From a virus: a stretch of DNA of 64,000 bases. The translations under genes and the position numbers were made by a program. Numbering within the stretch: the first letter of the stretch is position 1; each line of letters starts with the position of its first letter. The stretch lies in IMG/VR virus record IMGVR_UViG_3300032249_000542, positions 105,778 through 169,777 of that record; one strand, given 5' to 3'. Under the pieces are notes generated by a model. The model made no database searches. It was given only the letters and a program-made list of their open reading frames with translations, and was not told the origin of the DNA. Below, piece by piece: positions 18,448-61,921 of this stretch.

Positions 18448-18987
18448 ATGGCGAACGCAAAACATTATGTAAATAACACAGACTTCCTGAATGCTCTTAT
18501 AGAGTATAAAGCTAAATGTGATGAGGCAAAGGCAAACAATAAACCAGATCCACAAATTCCGAATTACATTGGAGAATGTTTTCTAAAGATCGGTGAACAC
18601 TTGTCTAGAAAACCAAACTTTATATCTTATTCTTTCCGAGATGAGATGATTGCCGACGGTATTGAAAATTGTTTAATGTATTTCAGAAACTTTGATCCTG
18701 ATAAATCAAAGAATCCATTTGCATACTTTACTCAGATTATTTACTATGCATTCTTGCGAAGGATTATGAAAGAGAAGAAACAGCTATATGTGAAGTATAA
18801 AGCAACAGAACAGTTTGGTATTCTGGATGAAGCAGAAATGTTTGAAGATGAGAACGGTAACTATAAACAGTTCGAGATGTATGAAAATATATCTGAATTC
18901 ATTCAAACATTTGAGGAAAACAAGAAGAAGAAAAAGGCAAAAGTGATAAAAGGAGTTGACAACTTCATAGAAAATGATATAGAATAA
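18448..18987 (+). CDS. gp55: Late sigma factor gp55
   Basis: HYVNN, IGECFLKI, NPFAYFTQIIYYAFLRRI. Confidence 0.96.
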   Translation: MANAKHYVNNTDFLNALIEYKAKCDEAKANNKPDPQIPNYIGECFLKIGEHLSRKPNFISYSFRDEMIADGIENCLMYFRNFDPDKSKNPFAYFTQIIYYAFLRRIMKEKKQLYVKYKATEQFGILDEAEMFEDENGNYKQFEMYENISEFIQTFEENKKKKKAKVIKGVDNFIENDIE

Positions 18988-20062: not shown

Positions 20063-20691
20063 GTAGATCGATTTATCTATTCCCTAAAGAAAGAATGGGA
20101 GTGACTTATCCTTATGTATTTTGGGATGGACTTTTTACTGATGAAGAACTTGATAGAGTAAAAGATTATTGTCGTGGTCTTGAATTGGCAACTGGAACTA
20201 CAGTTGGAAAAGATGGAGAACAGGATGATAAAAATGAAGCAAGAAAATCTGATATCGCATGGGCTAACCCAGGTGACGATAACATGTGGATATTTGACAG
20301 ACTTTCATGGGTAACTGAAAAAATCAATGATAGATTCTATGAATTTAATCTGAATGGATTTTCTGTTTTTCAATACACAGTTTATGACGGTAAGAAAAAA
20401 CAAAAGTATGATTATCACATGGATACAATCCTAGGTACAGATAAACCGGTTGACATGGCAGAAACAAGAAAGTTGTCTATGTCATTGATACTTTCCGACC
20501 CTAAAGATTATGAGGGTGGAGAGTTTTATATTCAAAGTGGATCACCTGAACAAGAAAAATTATTAAAGATGGAACAACTTAAAGGTCGTGTACTAGCCTT
20601 CCCATCATTTATGATTCATGGTGTTGCACCAGTAACTAAAGGTAAAAGAGAATCTATAGTCGTATGGGTTGAAGGACCTAAGTTTAAATAA
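20059..20691 (+). CDS. 2OG-Fe(II) oxygenase (PKHD/prolyl-hydroxylase-like)
   Basis: YDYHMD, RKLS, YEGGEF, FPSFMIHGVAPVTKGKRES. Confidence 0.9.
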   Translation: MSRSIYLFPKERMGVTYPYVFWDGLFTDEELDRVKDYCRGLELATGTTVGKDGEQDDKNEARKSDIAWANPGDDNMWIFDRLSWVTEKINDRFYEFNLNGFSVFQYTVYDGKKKQKYDYHMDTILGTDKPVDMAETRKLSMSLILSDPKDYEGGEFYIQSGSPEQEKLLKMEQLKGRVLAFPSFMIHGVAPVTKGKRESIVVWVEGPKFK

Positions 20692-22397
20692 TGATATTTT
20701 TCCGTAATGTACGTTGGAAGAATCTTCTTTCAACGGGAAACTATTTCACAGAAATAAAGTTAGATAGTACATCCAATACTTTGATAGTTGGCAATAACGG
20801 ATCAGGCAAATCAACAATGCTTGATGCGTTATGCTTTGCATTGTTTGGTAAAGCATTTCGTAGTATCAATAAACCAAACCTTGTCAATTCTATCAACGGA
20901 AAAGATTGTGTGGTTGAAGTTGAGTTTGATGCTGCAAATAAATCATACAAAGTTGTTCGTGGTATTAAACCCAACGTATTCGAAATCTATCAAGATGGAA
21001 TACTACTCAATCAAGATTCTGCCGCAAGAGACTATCAAGAATTTCTAGAGAAGTTCATTCTCAAACTAAACTATAAATCGTTTACACAAATTGTTATTCT
21101 TGGTTCTGCATCATTCACACCGTTCATGCAGTTGTCTGCATCTGACCGTCGTGCAATCATTGAGGATTTGTTAGATATTCAAATATTTTCTTCAATGAAT
21201 GGTGTTGTTAAAGAAAGAATGTCTGGTAACAAAGATTTTATTCAATCAACAAAGAATGATCTTGAAGTTACAAAGAAAATCTACGATGTCAAGAAGAAAC
21301 ATCACGATGAACTTCAACAAGATAAACAAGCAAAGGTAAACGAATATGAGAGTGAGATACAAAGTTGCAGAGAAACCATTGGCACCCTTTGTGGAGAAAT
21401 TGACGACTTGGGGAGAACGCAAAGCACACTTGCCGAAGTCTGCTCGCAAATTCCTGAAAATGAAAAGAAGATTGCTTCGCTTAAAAAAATTGAATCCAAA
21501 ATTGAAAGCAAGATATCCCAAGTGGGAACAGATAGAGAATTCTATGAACACAATGCTGATTGCCCAACGTGTAGGCAGGCCATTACCTTGGAGTCTAAGG
21601 AACGGCACATGGGCGATCTACTATCAAAACAACAGGAACTTGATAGTGGTCTAACAGAACTTCAAGGAAAAATAACAGAGCATGAAACTCTGTTGGCATC
21701 TCTGCGTTCCGATGAACAGAAGCTTCATACTGTACGAATAGAACTTGCTACCAAACAAACTGGCAAAGCCGGACTAGAAGCATCAATTGTAAAATTAGAA
21801 AAGAAGATTACAGATTTACAAAACACACAACACACACAAGACGGAAGCGAATTAAAAGAACTACAGGACACCTATGAATCTTTACAAGGTCAATTAAAAG
21901 AGTTGTTGGATGAGAAGTCTTATTATGAAGCTGCCGCAATACTATTAAAAGATTCTGGTATTAAAACCAAAATCATCAAACAATATTTACCAATTATAAA
22001 CAAGTTGGTAAACAAATACTTGGCATCATTGGATTTCTTTGTTAATTTTACGCTTGACGAATCGTTCAAGGAAGTGATAAAATCTAGACATAGAGATGAT
22101 TTTAGTTACCACAATTTCTCGGAAGGTGAAAAACAACGTATCGATATGGCATTGATGTTGACATGGAGAGCGGTTGCTAAACTAAAGAACTCTGCAAATA
22201 CTAACCTATTATTATTAGATGAAGTGTTTGATTCGAGTTTAGATACTGGTGGTACAGAAGAATTGATGAAAATTTTACACATGTTGGATGATGTTAATCT
22301 ATATGTCATTAGTCATAAAGGTGATATTCTACATGATAAGTTTGCCAATGTTATTAAATTTGATAAAGTAAAAAACTTCTCAAGGATGGTGAAATGA
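20691..22397 (+). CDS. gp46: Recombination ATPase gp46 (Rad50-like)
   Basis: GNNGSGKST, CPTC zinc hook, FSEGEK signature, LLLLDE, VISH. Confidence 0.96.
   Translation: MIFFRNVRWKNLLSTGNYFTEIKLDSTSNTLIVGNNGSGKSTMLDALCFALFGKAFRSINKPNLVNSINGKDCVVEVEFDAANKSYKVVRGIKPNVFEIYQDGILLNQDSAARDYQEFLEKFILKLNYKSFTQIVILGSASFTPFMQLSASDRRAIIEDLLDIQIFSSMNGVVKERMSGNKDFIQSTKNDLEVTKKIYDVKKKHHDELQQDKQAKVNEYESEIQSCRETIGTLCGEIDDLGRTQSTLAEVCSQIPENEKKIASLKKIESKIESKISQVGTDREFYEHNADCPTCRQAITLESKERHMGDLLSKQQELDSGLTELQGKITEHETLLASLRSDEQKLHTVRIELATKQTGKAGLEASIVKLEKKITDLQNTQHTQDGSELKELQDTYESLQGQLKELLDEKSYYEAAAILLKDSGIKTKIIKQYLPIINKLVNKYLASLDFFVNFTLDESFKEVIKSRHRDDFSYHNFSEGEKQRIDMALMLTWRAVAKLKNSANTNLLLLDEVFDSSLDTGGTEELMKILHMLDDVNLYVISHKGDILHDKFANVIKFDKVKNFSRMVK
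21346..21654 (+). CDS. Candidate overprinted basic protein inside gp46
   Basis: AAGGT RBS 8 nt before ATG; local shift to rare codons in the gp46 frame. Confidence 0.35.
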   Translation: MRVRYKVAEKPLAPFVEKLTTWGERKAHLPKSARKFLKMKRRLLRLKKLNPKLKARYPKWEQIENSMNTMLIAQRVGRPLPWSLRNGTWAIYYQNNRNLIVV

Positions 22398-22570
22398 TAG
22401 AAATAAGTGGACACATGGATAAAGATCGCAAAGCGATTGTATCTTTGGACGAAGAAACAAGAAAATATATTGTGACATGTACAGATGGTTTTGGTGCAAG
22501 ATATACCTCAGACTTTTTAACTTTACATGCAGCAGAGAACTTTGCTGAAGATTGGGTGCTACAGAAATGA
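22394..22570 (+). CDS. Small hypothetical protein (58 aa, ends AENFAEDWVLQK)
   Basis: ATGA overlaps with both the gp46 stop and the def start; below the ORF-track cutoff. Confidence 0.7.
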   Translation: MIEISGHMDKDRKAIVSLDEETRKYIVTCTDGFGARYTSDFLTLHAAENFAEDWVLQK

Positions 22571-23181
22571 GTGAAATGATTAGTATTAATACCGAAGAAG
22601 GTATTACGTCATCTGTCAAAGATACAGAATTAGATGTACTTCCAGTTTATCCAGATGCATTCCCAATGCTTCAAGAAAAGGTTCCTGAGTATAAAGATGC
22701 ATTACCTAGTGGAACTATGACTGTTCTAGTCAAACGATTGAAGATGACAATGAAAGCATACAACGGTTTAGGATTGTCTGCAAATCAATGTGGAGTCTTT
22801 GAACGAGTTTTTGTAATGCGTATGCAAGATAGAAATGAAATAAAAAATGTTGCATGTATCAATCCAAAAATTATTGATGAATCTGATGAAATCATAAGAG
22901 ATAAAGAAGGTTGTCTTTCATACCCAGGAATGTTTCTTACAGTACCTAGATCACAATGGATTACTGCTTCATGGTATGATGAGAACGGTGAAGGTTATGA
23001 AGCAAGACTTGATGGCATACAAGCAAGAGTATTTGCACATGAACTAGATCATCTAAACGGTGTTAAGATGACTGACTATGTTGGTCCTGTTGCAGTTAAG
23101 ATGGCAAGAGATAAACAAGCAAAGTTGATGAAAAAAATTAAGCGACAAATGAAAAACGGAAAACTCCAAAACCCTATATAA
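22567..23181 (+). CDS. def: Peptide deformylase
   Basis: GLGLSANQCG, EGCLS, HELDHLNG. Confidence 0.95.
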   Translation: MSEMISINTEEGITSSVKDTELDVLPVYPDAFPMLQEKVPEYKDALPSGTMTVLVKRLKMTMKAYNGLGLSANQCGVFERVFVMRMQDRNEIKNVACINPKIIDESDEIIRDKEGCLSYPGMFLTVPRSQWITASWYDENGEGYEARLDGIQARVFAHELDHLNGVKMTDYVGPVAVKMARDKQAKLMKKIKRQMKNGKLQNPI

Positions 23182-23185
23182 TATT

Positions 23186-24367
23186 ATGAAATACAAACCA
23201 TACACACTTGCAGATATGAATGCTGCATCTGAACAAAATCTATTTACTGTCATCAGTACCTTTGCAGGTGCAGGTGGATCATCTACTGGATATAAACTTG
23301 CCGGTGGTAAAGTGCTTGTGTCTAACGAATTCGTTGACCATGCATATGAATCATACAAGTTAAATCATCCCGGGACAGTTGTATTGACTGGTGACATTAA
23401 AGAGATTGAAGGTTCTCGGTTTTTAGATGCTGCGAATCTATCTCCAGGTGAATTGGATATCTTTGATGGTTCTCCACCATGTACTCACTTTTCTATGTCA
23501 GGCAAACGTGAGAAGTCATGGGATAAAGAAAAGAACTATCATGGACATAAACAGTTTCAGATTGAGAAACTAACTTTGGAAATGATTCGTATTGCAAAAG
23601 ATTTACGACCAAAGACTATTGTTATTGAAAATGTGAAAGCATTATCATCAGGTAAGGCAATCAATTATTTAAATTCATTCAAATACGAGTTAGAAAAAAT
23701 TGGTTATAAGTGTATATCACATATTCTAAATGCATCACACTTTGGTGTACCTCAAGGACGTGAAAGAACATTTATCATCGGTGTTCGTAATGATGTTGCA
23801 GAGAAACTTGGTATTGAAGATTATAATTTATTTCAAACATTGTATCCTGAACCATCAGGAAAGAAGTTGTCACTACTAGGTGCGTTTGATGGATTAGATG
23901 ATGATCCTAACTATGCAATCGAATGTCAGAATGAAAGAGATAAACTTGCAAAAGGAAACATTGTTGTACGTGAAGTATTAAAGAAGATACCACACAATCC
24001 ACATAGACAAATGCAGTTCTGTAACTTTTTAAAAGATGTTGCAAAAGAAAACTCAGACATACCTAAACTTGCAAAGTTTAAAGATAAAGAATCGTACTTC
24101 AACTATTTCAGGTGTTCATGGGATGTACCATCTCCGACAATTACAGGAAGATGTCACTCTTACTTTCATCCATCTGAGGACAGATGTTTCACTTTGAAAG
24201 AATTGATGCGTATCATGAGTTTGCCTGATGACTTCAAGTTTGCTCCAGGTAGTGAAGAAGCAATGGAAGAACGTATTGGATTAATGGTTGCACCTAAAGT
24301 CATGCAAGCTATATCATCTAATCTTTACAACAAAATACTTAAACCTTATAAAGAGATGCAGCAATGA
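23186..24367 (+). CDS. C5-cytosine DNA methyltransferase
   Basis: Motif I FAGAGG, IV GSPPC, VI ENV, VIII QGRER, IX ELMRIMSLPDDF. Confidence 0.95.
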   Translation: MKYKPYTLADMNAASEQNLFTVISTFAGAGGSSTGYKLAGGKVLVSNEFVDHAYESYKLNHPGTVVLTGDIKEIEGSRFLDAANLSPGELDIFDGSPPCTHFSMSGKREKSWDKEKNYHGHKQFQIEKLTLEMIRIAKDLRPKTIVIENVKALSSGKAINYLNSFKYELEKIGYKCISHILNASHFGVPQGRERTFIIGVRNDVAEKLGIEDYNLFQTLYPEPSGKKLSLLGAFDGLDDDPNYAIECQNERDKLAKGNIVVREVLKKIPHNPHRQMQFCNFLKDVAKENSDIPKLAKFKDKESYFNYFRCSWDVPSPTITGRCHSYFHPSEDRCFTLKELMRIMSLPDDFKFAPGSEEAMEERIGLMVAPKVMQAISSNLYNKILKPYKEMQQ

Positions 24368-25287
24368 AAGAGTTTTTTATAGACACCGACCTTGGCTTCG
24401 ATGAAGCGCAAAAGTTTCATGGTCGTGTTCCTACAGAAGATGATTATGATTTAGTTGTTGATGCCGATGAAGTTGATGATGACTTTCGTGTATGGGGTCC
24501 TGCAAATATGTTCGGCGAAAGAGAACTACTTGCAGGTGTAGCACGTAAAGTATTTCCAAAAGATGTTTACGATGATTGTGTAAAGACAATGATGGAAATA
24601 AATCACACTTCCGATCTACGTACTGCACAAGCAGGACCATGGGATCCTGACGAACTACTTAAAAAGTTTGGATGGGTAGAAGGTGAACACTATAAGTTCA
24701 AAGGTAAGACAAGAAACGCATTGATACGTAAAAAGAAAGATGGTACATGGGATACTGTCGCAAGAGGTAAAGCAATTCATAGTGTTCTACTTGGATACAA
24801 GAAGGGTAGATTTACTGGAGAAGTAGAATTAGATGCATGGTCAAAGAAGAATCCAGAAAAACAAAAAGTATTCTTTGACATGAACTTCTATGCTGCAAAA
24901 TCATACAACTTCATTGCACCAAAAGAATATACTAATCAAGTAATGTTTGCAGACAAGTATATTAAAAAAGAAAATAGATTGAATGATACAATCTTTACTA
25001 CAATGTCAGCAAATAAATATACTGAGAACGATACATCCATGATGGGTTATCATATCGATGCAGGTGATTTGAACTCAAGTCTAACATGCATATCTGTATT
25101 TAAAGTTGGTGATTTCAAAGGTGCATACTTTATTCTACCACAACATCGTGTAGCAATATCAGTTGGTGATGGTGATGTATTTGTTGGTGACAGTCGTAAA
25201 CAACATGGTGTAAGCGAACTTGAAGGACCAGGGACTAGATTATCTTGTGTCTCTTATTGTGATACTAGGATGGCGAATGTTAAATAA
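24364..25287 (+). CDS. TET/JBP-family 5-methylpyrimidine dioxygenase
   Basis: HxD (YHIDAGD), distal H (QHG), R (TRLSCVSY); lies between a C5-MTase and a GT. Confidence 0.82.
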   Translation: MKEFFIDTDLGFDEAQKFHGRVPTEDDYDLVVDADEVDDDFRVWGPANMFGERELLAGVARKVFPKDVYDDCVKTMMEINHTSDLRTAQAGPWDPDELLKKFGWVEGEHYKFKGKTRNALIRKKKDGTWDTVARGKAIHSVLLGYKKGRFTGEVELDAWSKKNPEKQKVFFDMNFYAAKSYNFIAPKEYTNQVMFADKYIKKENRLNDTIFTTMSANKYTENDTSMMGYHIDAGDLNSSLTCISVFKVGDFKGAYFILPQHRVAISVGDGDVFVGDSRKQHGVSELEGPGTRLSCVSYCDTRMANVK

Positions 25288-26077
25288 TTTCTTTATACCA
25301 ACATATAAAAGACATGATGCACAAATAACTTTTAGTAATCTACCAAAGTCTTGGCAAGATAGAACATTCTTAGTTGTACAACGTGACGAACGACATTTAT
25401 ATAATGACTATCCGCACATTGTGTTACCTGATGATATAACTAAGGTGCCAGAGAAACGTGAGTGGATTGCAAAACAAAATCTTGACAAACGATTTGGTGT
25501 CTTTGATGATGACTTGAAGTTCTTTAAAACCAAAATGATTAATGATGATTATGAAAAGTCAAAAATCAAAATGGAAGATAAAGATTTTGATGACCTAGAA
25601 GAATTATTGTGTGGTTGGATGGATGAAGGTATTGTGTTTTGTGGTATGGATGTAACATCTAACATACCTGATCGTGAAAAAGAATACAAAGAGATTACTA
25701 GACAATGGTCTAACTTTTTCTTTGATGGTCCGAACTTTCCTGCGAATGAATTGGATTGGACTAGTATACGATATGCAGAAGATTTTCATGTTACCCTACA
25801 GTTATTTAAGATGGGGTATAAGAATCGTCTAAGTAATAGGTATAGAGTTGACCCAGGACCTGTTCAATCAGGCGGTGGATTAACTGATGAAAGAACTATA
25901 CAAGCACATAATGAATCTATGCAAAAACTTGCTTTAGCACACCCAGGACTAGTTGCGTTATATGAAAAAGAAACTACCGCTGGTGAGTGGAAAAATACTG
26001 CAAAAGTAGCAGCAAATATCTCATGGAAGAAAGCATTTAAAGATGCCAATTCGACAACACTAGAAAGTTTCTTTTAA
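25277..26077 (+). CDS. TET-associated DNA glycosyltransferase (GT-A, TAGT/GREB1-like)
   Basis: FIPTYKR, VFDDDLKF (DxD), AEDFHVTLQLFKMGYKN, SGGG; ATG 25277 overlaps the TET stop. Confidence 0.8.
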   Translation: MLNNFFIPTYKRHDAQITFSNLPKSWQDRTFLVVQRDERHLYNDYPHIVLPDDITKVPEKREWIAKQNLDKRFGVFDDDLKFFKTKMINDDYEKSKIKMEDKDFDDLEELLCGWMDEGIVFCGMDVTSNIPDREKEYKEITRQWSNFFFDGPNFPANELDWTSIRYAEDFHVTLQLFKMGYKNRLSNRYRVDPGPVQSGGGLTDERTIQAHNESMQKLALAHPGLVALYEKETTAGEWKNTAKVAANISWKKAFKDANSTTLESFF

Positions 26078-26086
26078 GACAACTGC

Positions 26087-26115
26087 TTGACATAAAGCGG
26101 GTTACCATGTATAAT
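26087..26115 (+). promoter_or_regulatory. Early sigma70 promoter (perfect consensus)
   Basis: TTGACA-N17-TATAAT. Confidence 0.9.
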
Positions 26116-26150: not shown

Positions 26151-26342
26151 ATGTCAATTTGGCAACAAATGTCTAAAGAGGAAGAAATGCATTTTCACAC
26201 CTCGGTAAATGATGTTATTTCTGCATTTAAATACCACGGTATGCCAGCCGTACTAGATGAAGTATTCAAGGATGCGGCAATTCGGCAACAATTCTATACA
26301 TACTTGACAAATACAGCAAAATCTGTTAATATATCAGTCTAA
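26151..26342 (+). CDS. Small early hypothetical protein
   Basis: RBS AAGGA, downstream of a consensus promoter. Confidence 0.65.
   Translation: MSIWQQMSKEEEMHFHTSVNDVISAFKYHGMPAVLDEVFKDAAIRQQFYTYLTNTAKSVNISV
26304..26332 (+). promoter_or_regulatory. Early sigma70 promoter
   Basis: TTGACA-N17-TAATAT with extended TGn. Confidence 0.7.
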
Positions 26343-31117: not shown

Positions 31118-31461
31118 TGGAACAGATTGGCCGTAAGTTTGATGGTGAGAAACTAGAGTATGGTTTATTGCCACCGCTTGCATTAAAGGCCACGGTTGAC
31201 GTATTGACGTTTGGTGCTCAGAAGTATGAACGAGGTAATTGGAAGTACGTTTCTGAATCCAAACGAAGATATTTTGATGCATTGCATCGGCACATATGGG
31301 AATGGAAAGAAGGTGAACAACTAGATCCTGAATCTGGTAAACATCATCTAGCTCATGCCATATGTTGCTTGATGTTTTTGTATGAACATGATATACTCTA
31401 TTCTATTGATGACAATTTTAATAATGAGGCAAAAAATGAAGCTATCCAAAGAAACAGTTGA
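31117..31461 (+). CDS. DUF5664-like dATP/dGTP diphosphohydrolase-family protein
   Basis: GRKFDGEK, VLTFGAQKYERGNW, ALHRH, DPESGKHHLAHA. Confidence 0.8.
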   Translation: MEQIGRKFDGEKLEYGLLPPLALKATVDVLTFGAQKYERGNWKYVSESKRRYFDALHRHIWEWKEGEQLDPESGKHHLAHAICCLMFLYEHDILYSIDDNFNNEAKNEAIQRNS

Positions 31462-32116
31462 GATTCTTAAAAACTACGGTGCTATCAATCAAGGTATGTA
31501 CTTCCGTCAAGGTAAGTTTTTAAAGACTGTCAACTCCCACAAAAACATTCTAACAAGCGCACAGATTGACGAGGATATTCCAGTTAATTTTGGTGTGTAT
31601 GATATCAACAACTTCCTAAGTGTTATATCACTTGACGAATCACCAGAGTTTGAATTCAGTTCAAATGATGTTAAGATTAAGTGTAAAGGTGGTCGTAGCA
31701 TCATCAAGTATGGATTCTGCCAACCAGACTTAATTGTTTGTGCTCCAGAAAAAGACTTGGTAATGCCAGATCCAGAAATTCAATTCAATCTTTCACAAGA
31801 TGACTTGAAGTGGATTCTACGTAGTGCAAGTGTATTATCTACACCGCAAGTTGTTGTTGAATCTGATGGTGCAGATATAAATGTTACTGCAACCGATCTT
31901 TCTAATGACGCTACTAATGTCAACACACTAAGAGTTGGTGACGGTAACGGTAGTGCATACAAAATGATTTTCAAGGCTGAGTTCCTTGAGAAACTTATGT
32001 CTGGTAATTACGAAGTGAAGATTTCTTCTAAAGGTATCTCACATTTCAAAAACACTGGCCGTAAGATTGAATACTGGATTACTACTGAAACTGGTAGTAA
32101 ATTTTCTGCATCCTAA
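31436..32116 (+). CDS. gp45: Sliding clamp gp45
   Basis: MKLSKETVEILKNY...INQ, FGVYDINNFL, ISSKGISHF, IEYWI; RBS GAGG before ATG 31436. Confidence 0.93.
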   Translation: MKLSKETVEILKNYGAINQGMYFRQGKFLKTVNSHKNILTSAQIDEDIPVNFGVYDINNFLSVISLDESPEFEFSSNDVKIKCKGGRSIIKYGFCQPDLIVCAPEKDLVMPDPEIQFNLSQDDLKWILRSASVLSTPQVVVESDGADINVTATDLSNDATNVNTLRVGDGNGSAYKMIFKAEFLEKLMSGNYEVKISSKGISHFKNTGRKIEYWITTETGSKFSAS

Positions 32117-32324: not shown

Positions 32325-33257
32325 ATGGAACATATATTATGGACAGAGAAGTATCGTCCTCAAACGATAGAAAACTGTATCCTACCAGAACGATTGAAAA
32401 AACCATTTCAGGAATACGTCAATCAAAAGACTATTCCGAATCTTCTATTGAGTGGTGGCCCAGGAGTCGGAAAGACAACTGTAGCCAAAGCAATGTGCAA
32501 CGAGATAGGATGCGATTATCTAGTAATCAATGGTTCTGACGAATCTGGTATTGATACATTCCGCACTAAAATAAAGCACTACGCTTCTTCTATGTCATTT
32601 GATGGTAATCGTAAGGTTATCATCATTGACGAAGCGGATTATCTAAATCCTAATTCTACACAACCTGCTCTGCGTAATGCGATTGAAGAATTCGCAGGAA
32701 ACTGCTCATTCATCTTTACTTGTAATTTCAAGAATCGTATTATTGATCCACTTCATTCACGGTGTGCTGTGATTGAGTTTGGTATGAAGAACGGTGAGAA
32801 AGAAAAGATGGCTTCGCAGTTTTTCAAGCGAATTCAGGAGATTTTGCAAAGTGAAAAAATCGAGTTTGATAAGGCAGTTGTTGCCGAGTTAGTCAAGAAA
32901 CACTTTCCAGACTTCCGTCGTGTCGTTAATGAACTGCAAAGGTATTCAAAGTTTGGTGAGATCAATCAAGGTATCCTTGCACAGATATCATCAACAAAAA
33001 TTTCTGACATTGTAAAACACATTTCTGCAAAAGACTTTGGTTCCATTCGTAAATGGGCAGCGACAGAAGATATCGATCCTACTACAGTTTTCAGAATGAT
33101 TTACGATAACATGTATGATATATTGAAACCAAATTCAATTCCAAAAGCAGTTTGTATTCTTGCTGACTATCAGTACAAGAATGCTTTTGTTGCTGATCCT
33201 GAAATCAATATGGTTGCATGTTTGACTGAACTGATGGTTGAATGTGAATTTCAATAA
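32325..33257 (+). CDS. gp44: Clamp loader large subunit gp44
   Basis: WTEKYRP, GPGVGKTT, IIIDEAD, LHSRC. Confidence 0.96.
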   Translation: MEHILWTEKYRPQTIENCILPERLKKPFQEYVNQKTIPNLLLSGGPGVGKTTVAKAMCNEIGCDYLVINGSDESGIDTFRTKIKHYASSMSFDGNRKVIIIDEADYLNPNSTQPALRNAIEEFAGNCSFIFTCNFKNRIIDPLHSRCAVIEFGMKNGEKEKMASQFFKRIQEILQSEKIEFDKAVVAELVKKHFPDFRRVVNELQRYSKFGEINQGILAQISSTKISDIVKHISAKDFGSIRKWAATEDIDPTTVFRMIYDNMYDILKPNSIPKAVCILADYQYKNAFVADPEINMVACLTELMVECEFQ

Positions 33258-33643
33258 TGAGTAACCCTTTTGATTATGTTAAAGAAATTCTTCAAGGCAA
33301 GAAGAATATCATAAAAGATGCAGAGTCAGAAAAAGACTATGTTCCATATCTGGTCAACCGTAGTATTTCGTATCATTATGATTGTGTCATGTGGGCAAAT
33401 GAGATGAATATTCGTTCATCTGCTGACAAAAAGATGCAATTTGACTTTTTACTAAATACTGTACGGTCAACGAAAAGACCATTTGCTAAGTGGATTAAGC
33501 GTGAATCAAGTGACGATATAGAATGTTTGAAGTTACTTTATGGATATTCCAATCAAAAAGCCCTTGAAGCTCTACGCCTACTTAGTGATGAACAAATCCA
33601 AGAACTAAAAGAAAAAACTCGAAAGGGTGGATTAAGGAAATGA
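33257..33643 (+). CDS. gp62: Clamp loader small subunit gp62
   Basis: YVPYLVNR, ANEMN, QFDFLLN, YGYSNQKA. Confidence 0.93.
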   Translation: MSNPFDYVKEILQGKKNIIKDAESEKDYVPYLVNRSISYHYDCVMWANEMNIRSSADKKMQFDFLLNTVRSTKRPFAKWIKRESSDDIECLKLLYGYSNQKALEALRLLSDEQIQELKEKTRKGGLRK

Positions 33644-35781: not shown

Positions 35782-36080
35782 TGATAAAACTACTCACACT
35801 AAAAACAAATCATACCCTAATGGGGAATGTTGAAGATTTACCAGAATTTAATTATGTGACTATTAAAGAACCTGTACAGGTGGTACAGATTCCACCACGT
35901 GCGGCAAACGATACTGGAAGTATTGCTTTTTCTCCATTTTTAGATTATACTAATGAATTCAGAAGTGGAATACAGATTATAAAAAATGATATTCTAACCA
36001 CTACTACGCCTATACTTGAATTAGAAAATCAGTATAACTCTATCTTCGGATCCGGAATACAAATTGCAAAAACACTTTAA
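35781..36080 (+). CDS. Conserved hypothetical protein (Sm-like) upstream of gp43
   Basis: IKLLTLKTNHTLMG...YNSIFGSGIQ; translationally coupled. Confidence 0.65.
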   Translation: MIKLLTLKTNHTLMGNVEDLPEFNYVTIKEPVQVVQIPPRAANDTGSIAFSPFLDYTNEFRSGIQIIKNDILTTTTPILELENQYNSIFGSGIQIAKTL

Positions 36081-38611
36081 TGAGTAAATACTACACAAAC
36101 ATAACGGTATATGGTCCTCATATACTTTATCGAGGTGTAAAGAATGGTAGGCGCATAAAAGAGAAAATCAACTATGCGCCTACTCTCTTTTTACCTGCCA
36201 AGAAAAAGACCGACTACAAAACTCTGTTCGGTGAATATCTAGAACCCATGCAGTTTTCCAATATTAGAGAGGCAAGGGACTTTGTTAAACGATATGAATC
36301 CGTAGAGAATTTTAAAGTCTATGGTAATGATCGTTACGCATATGCATTTATCGCAGACAACCACAAAGGTTTGATTGATTGGAATATGGATGAACTATCA
36401 ATTGTAATCATCGATATTGAGGTTGGTTCTGAGAATGGTTTCCCTGATCCTTACAAAGCATCCGAACCAATTACTGCAATTGCTGTTCGTCAATTGAACG
36501 GTGGCACTACTGTTTATGGTTGTGGTCACTATGATAATAACGATGAAACTGTTAGTTATGTTCGATGCCAAGATGAAATTGATCTATGTAAGAAATTTCT
36601 AAATGATTGGCAACACAACTATCCTGATGTGATAACTGGTTGGAATACTGAAGGATTTGATATTCCTTATCTGATTAATCGTTTCACTAAACTATTTGGT
36701 GAGAAGGAAGCACGTAAGTTATCTCCATGGGAAGTAATCAATGAGAGGGTTTACAATTTCAAAGGTTCAGAGAAGAAGTCTTATGATATCTTTGGTATTG
36801 GTCAACTAGATTATATTGAACTATACAAATGGTATGCGCCTAATGGTAAGTCACAAGATTCATACAAGTTGGACAACATCGCAAGTGTAGAACTTGGTGA
36901 GAACAAACTATCCTATGATGAATATGATACCCTTCATCAATTGTACAGATTAAACTATCAGAAGTTTATTGAGTATAACATCAAAGACGTTGAACTGATT
37001 CTGAAACTAGAAGAAAAGTTAAAGTTGATTCAGTTGGCATTGACTATGGCATATGATACCAAGTGTAACTATGCTGATGTCTTTGCACAAACTCGCATGT
37101 GGGATGCATTGATTTACAATCATCTACTAGAACAAAAGATCATCGTACCACCAAAAGAAGTTTCACATAAAGGTGAAGCATTTGAAGGTGCGTATGTTAA
37201 AGAACCACAAGTTGGTAATCACGATTGGGTTGCATCGTTTGACTTGAATTCTCTGTATCCACACTTGATTCAAATGTACAACATATCTCCTGAGACGTTG
37301 ATTCCTGTATCAGAACATACAGAAGAAATGCGTAAGGTAATACATGATGGTGTAACCGTAGATAAACTGTTAGAAATGAAAGTTGACACTTCAAAGATAT
37401 CGAATGTCATCCTAACACCTAATGCTCAATACTTCCGTAAAGGTGTACAAGGATTCTTGCCAAAGATGATGGAAGAAATGTATGAGGATCGTAAGAAGTT
37501 TAAGAAGTTAATGCTCAAGGCTGAACAAGAGTATGAAAATGAAACTGATGTAACTAAGAAAAAAGAACTAGAGAATTTAATCTCAAGATATAACAATCTA
37601 CAACTTGCAAAGAAATTATCTTTGAACTCTGCTTATGGTGCATTGGGTTCACAGTATTTTCGATTCTTTGATTTGCGAATGGCACTAGCAGTAACCATGT
37701 CGGGTCAACTAGCAATCCAGTGGATTGAAAGTAAACTTAATACCTACATGAATGATATTTTAAAAACGAAAAAAGATTATGTTATTGCTTCAGATACGGA
37801 TTCGATATATCTCAACCTTGGCCCACTTGTACGCAAAGTCTATAAAGAAGAAACGGATCCTAACAAAATTATCACCTTCATGGATCGTGTCTGTGAAGAT
37901 AAGATACAACCGTACATTAATAAGAGTTATCAAGAACTTGCTGATTACATCCACGCCTACGCACAAAAAATGCAAATGAAACGTGAAGCACTTGCAAGTA
38001 AAGGTATATGGACTGCAAAGAAACGATACATCCTCAATGTGTATAACAATGAAGGTGTACAGTATGCAGAACCGCAGATGAAGGTTAAAGGTCTAGAGAT
38101 GATTAAATCTTCTACACCTTATGCTATTCGTGAAAAGATGAAGGAGATGGTTAAACTTGTAATGAATGGTACAGAGAGTGACGTACAAGACTTTATTGCG
38201 AAATTCCGAGAAGAATTTAAATCCTTACCAGTCGAAGATATATCGTTCCCACGTGGAGTGAATAATCTTGCTGAGTATCGTGATTCTGTTGGTATATACA
38301 AGAAAGGTACACCTATTCATGTAAAGGGTGCGTTACTATATAATCATTTCTTAAAACAAAAGAATCTAACAAACAGTTACCCATTGATACAAGAAGGTGA
38401 GAAATTAAAGTTCACCTATCTAAAATCACCGAATCCAATAAAGGATACAGTCATATCTTTTCCGACAAGACTCCCGAAAGAGTTTGACTTGCAGAAGTAT
38501 ATCGACTATAATATTCAATTCGAGAAGGCTTTTATTGAACCAGTTTCGGTTATTCTAACCTGTATGGGATGGGAGTCTGAAAAATCTAATTCGTTGGAGA
38601 GTTTCTTCTAA
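36080..38611 (+). CDS. gp43: Family B DNA polymerase gp43
   Basis: Exo DIE, SFDLNSLYPH, KLSLNSAYG, SDTDS, KKRY; C-terminal clamp motif SLESFF. Confidence 0.98.
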   Translation: MSKYYTNITVYGPHILYRGVKNGRRIKEKINYAPTLFLPAKKKTDYKTLFGEYLEPMQFSNIREARDFVKRYESVENFKVYGNDRYAYAFIADNHKGLIDWNMDELSIVIIDIEVGSENGFPDPYKASEPITAIAVRQLNGGTTVYGCGHYDNNDETVSYVRCQDEIDLCKKFLNDWQHNYPDVITGWNTEGFDIPYLINRFTKLFGEKEARKLSPWEVINERVYNFKGSEKKSYDIFGIGQLDYIELYKWYAPNGKSQDSYKLDNIASVELGENKLSYDEYDTLHQLYRLNYQKFIEYNIKDVELILKLEEKLKLIQLALTMAYDTKCNYADVFAQTRMWDALIYNHLLEQKIIVPPKEVSHKGEAFEGAYVKEPQVGNHDWVASFDLNSLYPHLIQMYNISPETLIPVSEHTEEMRKVIHDGVTVDKLLEMKVDTSKISNVILTPNAQYFRKGVQGFLPKMMEEMYEDRKKFKKLMLKAEQEYENETDVTKKKELENLISRYNNLQLAKKLSLNSAYGALGSQYFRFFDLRMALAVTMSGQLAIQWIESKLNTYMNDILKTKKDYVIASDTDSIYLNLGPLVRKVYKEETDPNKIITFMDRVCEDKIQPYINKSYQELADYIHAYAQKMQMKREALASKGIWTAKKRYILNVYNNEGVQYAEPQMKVKGLEMIKSSTPYAIREKMKEMVKLVMNGTESDVQDFIAKFREEFKSLPVEDISFPRGVNNLAEYRDSVGIYKKGTPIHVKGALLYNHFLKQKNLTNSYPLIQEGEKLKFTYLKSPNPIKDTVISFPTRLPKEFDLQKYIDYNIQFEKAFIEPVSVILTCMGWESEKSNSLESFF

Positions 38612-61058: not shown

Positions 61059-61640
61059 ATGGCTTTATGGGGAAATCTAGATGCATCTAACAATGCACCT
61101 GTTTTTGCTGATACTGGTGGTTACGGCGTTACTGCTAACACCCAGGACGCAACAATTTTTGGTAATGTAACTATCGGTGCTACACGTGCCGATGTAGCAA
61201 TGGGTATGTTTGGTGTTGACACAATAGAAGAAGCGGTAACAACTGGTGACGGTTCTAAAGCTACACACACTGGTTGGGTACTACGTACTGCGTACACAGG
61301 ACCAGTAGTTTCAATTACTGCAAATGCTGGTGCTGTTGGTACAAACAGTTATATTACATTTACTGGTGGTTCATCTGGTGCTGCAGATGGAAAAACAGGT
61401 AACACTTCAGCAAACGCAATCGTTTCTGTTAATTCAACAGGACACATTGTCTCTGTTACCGTGCTATCTGGTGGCGAATATGCAAATACACCAGTAGCTA
61501 CACCAGCAGCAGGTAACGCAGCATTTACATTAACAATGGGTGGTCGTGCTAACCGTGTATTCCAAGAAACATTAGTTGCTATGGGATCTATCTACGGTGA
61601 CGCACCAGCAGCAGAAGATACTAACTATCCTGACGCATAA
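61059..61640 (+). CDS. Virion structural protein (MALWG type)
   Basis: MALWG, MFGVD, HTGWV, GGRANRVFQETLVAM. Confidence 0.7.
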   Translation: MALWGNLDASNNAPVFADTGGYGVTANTQDATIFGNVTIGATRADVAMGMFGVDTIEEAVTTGDGSKATHTGWVLRTAYTGPVVSITANAGAVGTNSYITFTGGSSGAADGKTGNTSANAIVSVNSTGHIVSVTVLSGGEYANTPVATPAAGNAAFTLTMGGRANRVFQETLVAMGSIYGDAPAAEDTNYPDA

Positions 61641-61921
61641 TGAATTTTGGTGGCTTTATTAGTTTGGACGGTCAGTCAAATGATCGTCCAAATTATCCAG
61701 ATCAACTGTTAGTTGTTTTATCTGATTACGGTATAGATATATCGCAGATGAATGATTTAGATCCACTTGAAGATGAGGGGATTGTAGAGTTGCATCCTGG
61801 GAAATATTTGTATTTTGTGTATGCTAAAAACGATGATGGTAGTTATGATTTTCATTCTGAAGTAACCGATGAAGATGGATTGGAAGACATACTATCAGAC
61901 GAGGAAGAAGATAACGATTAA
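61640..61921 (+). CDS. Acidic hypothetical protein
   Basis: Coupled ORF. Confidence 0.55.
   Translation: MNFGGFISLDGQSNDRPNYPDQLLVVLSDYGIDISQMNDLDPLEDEGIVELHPGKYLYFVYAKNDDGSYDFHSEVTDEDGLEDILSDEEEDND

Follow-up and report, generated by a model that had tools for sequence, protein, structure and literature searches.

We find that the TET-associated glycosyltransferase (TAGT) of an aquatic T4-like phage ends in the hexapeptide TLESFF, which closely matches the tail of the phage's own DNA polymerase gp43, SLESFF. This polymerase tail is carried, in one lineage or another, by three unrelated folds of a single DNA-modification pathway: the GT-A fold of TAGT, the 2OG-Fe dioxygenase fold of TET (PF12851) and the C5-methyltransferase fold (PF00145). 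We propose, with a probability of roughly 0.72–0.75, that the TAGT tail is a docking peptide that would recruit a DNA-hypermodifying enzyme to the sliding clamp gp45. Its presence on three modification enzymes makes it probable that DNA modification in these phages is tethered to the replication clamp.

The window, by which we mean the whole 64-kb stretch of DNA analysed here, is the right-hand part of a 169,777-bp T4-like phage genome (36.8% G+C) whose gp43 is about 51% identical to the gp43 of Synechococcus and Prochlorococcus myoviruses. A four-gene cassette that comprises a peptide deformylase, a C5-methyltransferase, a TET/JBP dioxygenase and TAGT is flanked by gp46 (20691–22397) and gp45 (Table 1). 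All of gp45, gp44, gp62, regA and gp43 lie downstream of the cassette, and the gp45 clamp and its gp44/62 loader are encoded by the same genome as the tailed TAGT. The gp45 protein matches T4 gp45 (1CZD) and RB69 gp45 (1B77/1B8H) over its full length, with an E value of 2.5e-18 and Met1 aligned on Met1. Within the cassette, the methyltransferase stop codon overlaps the TET start (24364–24367) and TAGT starts before the TET gene has ended, the two sharing 11 nt (25277–25287); these overlaps suggest translational coupling of the three genes. Ten bases past the TAGT stop codon is a perfect sigma-70 consensus promoter (TTGACA at 26087–26092, a 17-nt spacer and TATAAT at 26110–26115), and downstream of it lies a 63-amino-acid open reading frame (ORF; 26151–26342) that is conserved in relatives and belongs to no family. 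The genome also encodes, outside the window, a homologue of the PHROG 624 'DNA binding protein' (genome 40156–40725), as does one of the related loci (L051:6623–7258). Of 80 non-T4-like loci, 45 have a homologue of this protein close to TAGT, as do several T4-like loci, and it may be a further part of the modification system.

Table 1. Genes of the modification cassette and of the replication module in the window, with the two matching C-terminal tails
Feature	Position	Strand	Assignment and remarks
gp55 late sigma factor	18448–18987	+	PHROG 234; possible degenerate clamp motif GVDNFI, then ENDIE
Peptide deformylase	22552–23181		First cassette gene
C5-cytosine methyltransferase	23186–24367	+	PF00145; pathway step one; ends ...KPYKEMQQ, without tail here
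TET/JBP dioxygenase	24364–25287	+	PF12851; pathway step two; ends ...TRMANVK, without tail here
TAGT (TET-associated glycosyltransferase)	25277–26077	+	266 aa; PF20691, PHROG 842; GT-A fold
TAGT tail TLESFF	26057–26074	+	Candidate gp45-docking peptide
gp45 sliding clamp	31436–32116	+	PF09116, PHROG 223; candidate docking partner
gp44 clamp loader	32325–33257	+	PHROG 168/225 assignment for gp44 and gp62
gp62 clamp loader	33257–33643	+	PHROG 168/225 assignment for gp44 and gp62
gp43 family-B DNA polymerase	36080–38611	+	Pfam and PHROG 262; end-to-end alignment with RB69 and T4 gp43
gp43 tail SLESFF	38591–38608	+	Clamp-binding peptide by homology of position

The TAGT reading frame opens at a TTG codon (25220), and every homologue begins at the ATG at 25277 (MLNNFF...). 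The protein scores 37.1 bits against PF20691 (cut-off 27.5) and reaches an E value of 4.7e-34 against PHROG 842, and its gene adjoins that of the TET/JBP dioxygenase through the 11-nt overlap, with the C5-methyltransferase gene just upstream of TET. Residues 77–79 form a nearly invariant DDD, the acidic metal/nucleotide-sugar motif. In the GenBank phage collection TAGT has no close relative, the best match being 28% identical. Solely from its family, the enzyme is predicted to glycosylate 5hmC in DNA (PMC8256090; bioRxiv 10.1101/2023.12.21.572611). An AlphaFold2 model built from a 150-sequence alignment (mean pLDDT 95.5, pTM 0.91) retrieves GT-A structures in Foldseek, including the LH3 GT domain, TarP, GnT-I and K4CP, at TM scores of 0.4–0.5. 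The last helix of the model comprises residues 250–258; the final six residues lie beyond it at a pLDDT of about 64, with a short helix at residues 262–265. Tail-less homologues end directly after this conserved WKKAYxSSQ helix. The model thus presents the tail as an appendix outside the folded domain, predicted to be dispensable for the fold. Only about 3–5 linker residues separate the last helix from the motif, compared with about 17 in T4 gp55, so docking of TAGT may be sterically demanding.

TAGT ends ...KDANSTTLESFF, its last residues reading ...ANSTTLESFF with the stop codon directly after TLESFF (ACA CTA GAA AGT TTC TTT TAA, 26057–26077). The polymerase ends ...EKSNSLESFF (TCG TTG GAG AGT TTC TTC TAA, 38591–38611). 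The two tails share five of their six residues and use different codons for Leu, Glu and the last Phe; reading both ends bears out an earlier note on this DNA, which had described them as one peptide in different codons. Among the plus-strand genes of the 169,777-bp genome, an [ST]LESFF ending occurs only in TAGT and gp43.

The tails of T4 gp43, gp55 and gp33 are established gp45-binding epitopes that act as freely interchangeable modules, and the 11 C-terminal residues of RB69 polymerase have been co-crystallised on the hydrophobic patch of the clamp (PMC2988020). As read from NC_000866, T4 gp43 ends EEKASLDFLFG, T4 gp33 ends KTNTLDFLL and T4 gp55 ends SPSLDFLYEAND, which contains SLDFLYEAND. 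When the phage polymerase is aligned with these proteins, its EKSNSLE falls on EKKASLF of RB69 gp43 (which continues DMFDF), and the alignment with T4 gp43 reaches within two residues of the T4 end. Because both position and chemistry match the T4 and RB69 gp43 tails, we infer that SLESFF is the clamp-binding tail of this polymerase. TAGT carries the same kind of peptide as gp43, as the earlier note had held. Like the T4 and RB69 tails, with their pattern (S/T)LDFL(F/Y/L), it sits at the extreme C-terminus, begins with Ser/Thr-Leu-acid and ends in two bulky hydrophobic residues, and it is a portable module on unrelated proteins encoded beside gp45 and gp44/62. The consensus differs, being LDFLF there and LExFF here, and so do the clients, which are the polymerase and transcription factors in T4 and RB69 and would here include DNA base-modifying enzymes. 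A tblastn search with T4 gp33 against the genome placed the last 19 residues of gp33 (...KTNTLDFLL) on the TAGT tail at 47% identity, with an E value of 5.7 that is not significant.

To see how widely the tail is shared, we drew on three samples of TAGT homologues. By word search, seven of nine homologues, down to 38% identity, end [ST]L[ED][SG][FL]F. A profile search covered 1.8 billion representatives, and among the best 150 matches taken from it about 30, mostly the closest, end [ST]L[ED]xF[FMIL] plus 0–2 residues; the remaining ones stop right after the WKKAYxSSQ helix. A scan of IMG/VR yielded 71 related TAGT loci, nearly all of them in T4-like replication modules with gp43, uvsX, gp41, gp44/62/45 and regA. 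These loci and the present genome gave a survey set of 1390 non-overlapping ORFs, 92 of which match [ST][LIM][DE]x[FILM][FILMY] plus 0–2 residues at the C-terminus, where the frequency of the motif at internal positions predicts 0.6 (an enrichment of about 150-fold). As a guard against circularity, we then built a position-specific scoring matrix (PSSM) from 12 distinct gp43 tails only, set a threshold of 5 bits and ranked all 1390 ORFs. The top 104 consist of gp43 (25 of 25), TAGT (57 of 71), TET (15 of 22) and C5-methyltransferase (7 of 55), and none of the other 1217 ORFs of the 71 loci and this genome reaches 5 bits. The tail is thus kept among TAGT homologues in T4-like genomes, a point that the earlier note had singled out as a check on its proposal.

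The pattern reaches beyond what the earlier note had seen, in that TET and a family of C5-methyltransferases bear the tail in sister lineages. Each family has its own version of the tail. All related polymerases end [ST][LIM][ED]xFF, the tailed TAGTs have the form [ST]L[ED]xF[FMLI] and the tailed TETs end xLExF[LI]; TETs of the window's own clade are tail-less. The tailed methyltransferases form a second PF00145 family of about 397 amino acids encoded just downstream of TAGT, most members of which end in the lower-scoring variant QLD[EQ]FM[VI], and the window-type methyltransferase bears a tail in none of the survey members. T4-like loci with two TAGT paralogues usually have one tailed copy (L014, L016 and L019), and in L058 both are tailed. 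The second methyltransferase family was seen at L022:10651–11841, L029:3478–4668, L041:10773–11999 and about 35 further places, in T4-like loci with no TET shown; four of five long records with this family have no PF12851 match (these records are 39–71% complete). Separately, a close relative encodes between gp44 and gp62 a 220-amino-acid ORF that is absent from the window (L004:8815–9477). Its clamp-like end reads ...NTLDIFYNE; the protein has no match in Pfam or PHROG and may belong to a mobile element. A baseplate-hub protein of this phage that ends ...VQSFFG (genome 51330–52067, minus strand) falls below the PSSM threshold and was taken as a chance resemblance.

Across the homologues, the Leu of the TAGT tail is written with five different codons and the Ser with both TCN and AGY, and the peptide is kept down to about 35% identity, in agreement with the protein-level selection that the earlier note had proposed. 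We reject chance or a recent DNA copy as the origin of the tail because the codons of TAGT and gp43 differ, the enrichment is about 150-fold and synonymous codons vary across homologues. Within loci, the gp43 and TAGT tails may co-vary to a marginal degree: 18 distinct pairs share 73 matching positions versus 67.3 ± 3.1 in permuted pairs, a difference (p about 0.05) that ignores phylogeny and is drawn from a motif of low variation. Examples are SIEDFFG on both proteins in L038, and MDDIFG on gp43 with LEDIFG on TAGT in L071.

These numbers also bear on whether the tail serves the enzyme itself, in stability, oligomerisation or as an active-site lid, or is simply an inherited non-docking sequence whose likeness to gp43 is coincidental. 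The very short linker and the short helix in the model would suit an intrinsic role of this kind. Such a role leaves the survey result hard to account for, with 92 cases seen where chance would give about 0.6, all of them in four DNA-acting families of unrelated fold. Furthermore, the tail has a low pLDDT, and many homologues fold without it, among them a whole clade of 67 representatives set apart by a deep split. We regard this explanation as very improbable.

The distribution of the tail follows that of the clamp in several respects. All five long records with a tailed TAGT encode gp45. A TAGT tree, built without the tail residues, has a deep split (support 100) between a clade of 67, all of them tail-less, and a clade of 87 that includes all tails. 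This tree implies no fewer than eight events of tail gain or loss, which weighs against the docking proposal. For the tail-less clade we collected 80 IMG/VR loci, which are non-T4-like and lie on contigs of up to about 70 kb. Across these 80 loci (1.2 Mb) there is no gp43, gp45, gp62 or uvsX; none of the 80 has a tailed TAGT, and none of their 1649 ORFs has a gp43-like tail. Nested in the tailed clade, as sister to tailed proteins, is a tail-less pair (P0007 and P0010) whose IMG/VR relatives lie in a 34-kb phage record, estimated to be 90% complete, with T7-like replication genes and no gp45 match. Lacking the clamp as well as the tail, this lineage amounts to a natural experiment. The claim that the tail is missing where no gp45 is encoded thus holds both for the 80 non-T4-like loci and for the 34-kb phage lineage. 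The converse is looser: the TAGT-family secondary glucosyltransferases of the T-even-type phages S16 and pKp20 are tail-less despite gp45, and the TAGT-family enzymes of phiRSL1 and PhiJL001 are likewise tail-less.

The remaining classical clients of the clamp give a less complete picture. The earlier note had gp55 ending in a related GVDNFI. The motif is present, but five more residues follow it (the protein ends ...KGVDNFIENDIE), as in T4 gp55 with SLDFLYEAND; the likeness is weak, and a GVDNFI-type motif is not kept in two related gp55 proteins. The sole gp33 candidate is a 73-amino-acid ORF outside the window (genome 46191–46412), picked out by weak similarity and synteny, which has no clamp tail. 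An acidic 93-amino-acid ORF (61640–61921; ...GLEDILSDEEEDND) has no family match. The end of this very acidic protein, ...DGLEDILSDEEEDND, has a Leu-acid-x-hydrophobic pair followed by an acidic run, a layout like that of T4 gp55, and the protein has no PHROG match.

With no clamp tail on the gp33 candidate of this phage and related gp55 proteins lacking the motif, the classical set of clamp clients is not fully reproduced here. This, together with the fact that a survey of this kind gives the shared peptide and not its partner, leaves some room for a different partner, be it a chaperone, a protease adaptor or another component of the replisome, on which gp43 and the modification enzymes would dock in common, so that they are co-localised or co-regulated and do not ride the clamp. 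We consider this unlikely. By position the gp43 tail is homologous to those of T4 and RB69, which have gp45 as their partner (PMC2988020), the phage's gp45 is homologous to the crystallised clamps over its full length, and the tail is absent from TAGT lineages without gp45. Because of the positional homology of the gp43 tail and the interchangeability of such tails in T4 (PMC2988020), we infer gp45 to be the partner of the TAGT tail as well.

In the mechanism that we propose, (T)LESFF of TAGT would dock on gp45 through the same motif that holds gp43 on the clamp. The gp44/62 loader would place gp45 on replicating phage DNA wherever there is a nick or a primer end, and a clamp-docked TAGT would be held on the DNA and slide or scan along it. 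The 5hmC made by the neighbouring methyltransferase and TET could then be glycosylated efficiently on freshly replicated DNA, and the last modification step would thereby be coupled to replication. In sister phages the same tail on TET, on the second methyltransferase family or on both would couple earlier steps too, and would turn the clamp into a toolbelt for hypermodification as a whole. A gain in the rate or the completeness of modification through docking would be a further step. In the window's clade the methyltransferase and TET are without tail, which indicates that the upstream steps manage untethered. The earlier note had gone on to suggest that tethering confines modification to phage DNA, as a form of self/non-self marking; we find this idea unsupported.

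Binding to gp45 could also serve another end. In T4 the gp45 clients have interchangeable tails and are rivals for common sites (PMC2988020), and with the tail on several enzymes of one pathway, abundant modification enzymes might occupy clamp sites as competitors, throttling or timing the access of the polymerase or of late transcription to the clamp until the DNA is modified. Such regulatory competition would leave unexplained why the tail is restricted to DNA-acting enzymes, and a substrate tether is the simpler reading; we therefore hold it to be quite unlikely.

Carried further, the tether could extend beyond TAGT and beyond gp45. In many aquatic T4-like phages, methyltransferase, TET and TAGT may each have acquired the tail independently, so that the line leading from 5mC through 5hmC to glycosyl-5hmC would travel on gp45 behind the fork, and the TAGTs of clamp-less phages would perhaps have a tail of the host β-clamp type (QGGLF or NGELF). 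We put this wider picture forward tentatively, at somewhat less than even odds.

The bacterial β-clamp motif, QL(S/D)LF, is a pentapeptide with Gln at position 1, Leu at position 4 and Phe at position 5. The window tail TLESFF does not fit it. Among the 1649 ORFs of the 80 non-T4-like loci, 22 end [QN]xx[LM]F against about 1.6 expected, and all 22 are TAGTs. In loci L090–L162 (for example L106:10001–10783 and L107:10001–10774) these proteins end ...KQGGLF or ...NGELF a few residues past the WKKA helix, in a form that resembles the bacterial motif. The carriers make up two related subclades and may owe their tails to shared ancestry. By way of these endings, clamp-less phages may tether TAGT to the host clamp.

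The closest functional parallel comes from eukaryotes. DNMT1, like other clients of PCNA, has a PIP box, Qxx(L/I/M)xx(F/Y)(F/Y), a short peptide that ties a DNA-modifying enzyme to the replication clamp and so couples an epigenetic mark to replication. The phage tail has the LxxFF core spacing of this box. It differs in that TAGT and gp43 have Ser, and not the conserved Gln, three residues before the Leu, in that the phage motif is strictly C-terminal, and in that the clamp is gp45 and not PCNA; the two are of independent origin. With LxxFF present and the Gln missing, the phage tail appears by analogy to work like a PIP box and is not a member of that class.

The idea that a phage DNA glucosyltransferase acts at the fork by way of the sliding clamp has been raised before, for T4 itself. 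An interaction of T4 α-GT with gp45 was proposed in 2004, in the work cited as ref. 20 of PMC13216743 (bioRxiv 10.64898/2025.12.06.692756), and that later study of 2025/26 did not reproduce it in vitro or in vivo; neither α-GT nor β-GT bound gp45 there. T4 α-GT ends ...FDIITK and β-GT ends ...KKAIDL, with no clamp-type tail in either, which agrees with the failed reproduction. α-GT has a GT-B fold and no tail; the present case concerns a recognisable motif on the GT-A family PF20691. The tail-less T4 enzymes and the tail-less secondary glucosyltransferases of T-even-type phages together indicate that phage DNA glycosyltransferases do not in general need a clamp tether.

The cassette has the enzyme families and gene order of the phage clusters of methyltransferase, TET (5mYOX) and glycosyltransferase described previously (PMC8256090; bioRxiv 10.1101/2023.12.21.572611). 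Both reports note clamp and clamp-loader genes only as neighbours of the clusters, and neither mentions a C-terminal clamp motif on the cluster enzymes. A literature search on clamp-binding motifs and phage glycosyltransferases found no paper describing such a tail. The TET and glycosyltransferases assayed in PMC8256090 were C-terminally His-tagged. A C-terminal affinity tag would bury the motif of any tailed enzyme, so that in vitro assays on naked DNA may understate the activity of tailed enzymes.

The tail type itself is known; if the proposal is correct, DNA base-modifying enzymes would be new clients of it and would join the client list of the T4-type clamp. Post-replicative hypermodification must cover the whole phage genome within one infection cycle, ahead of host nucleases, and a clamp tether would be a concrete mechanism by which hypermodification enzymes find their substrate fast. 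The old and disputed idea of replisome-coupled glucosylation would gain a firm footing in sequence, in a different enzyme family. The tether would likewise be a viral parallel to the link between DNMT1 and PCNA, a counterpart in viruses of prokaryotes to PCNA-coupled maintenance methylation. As a simple sequence marker, the motif can also help to find more clamp clients among uncultured T4-like phages.
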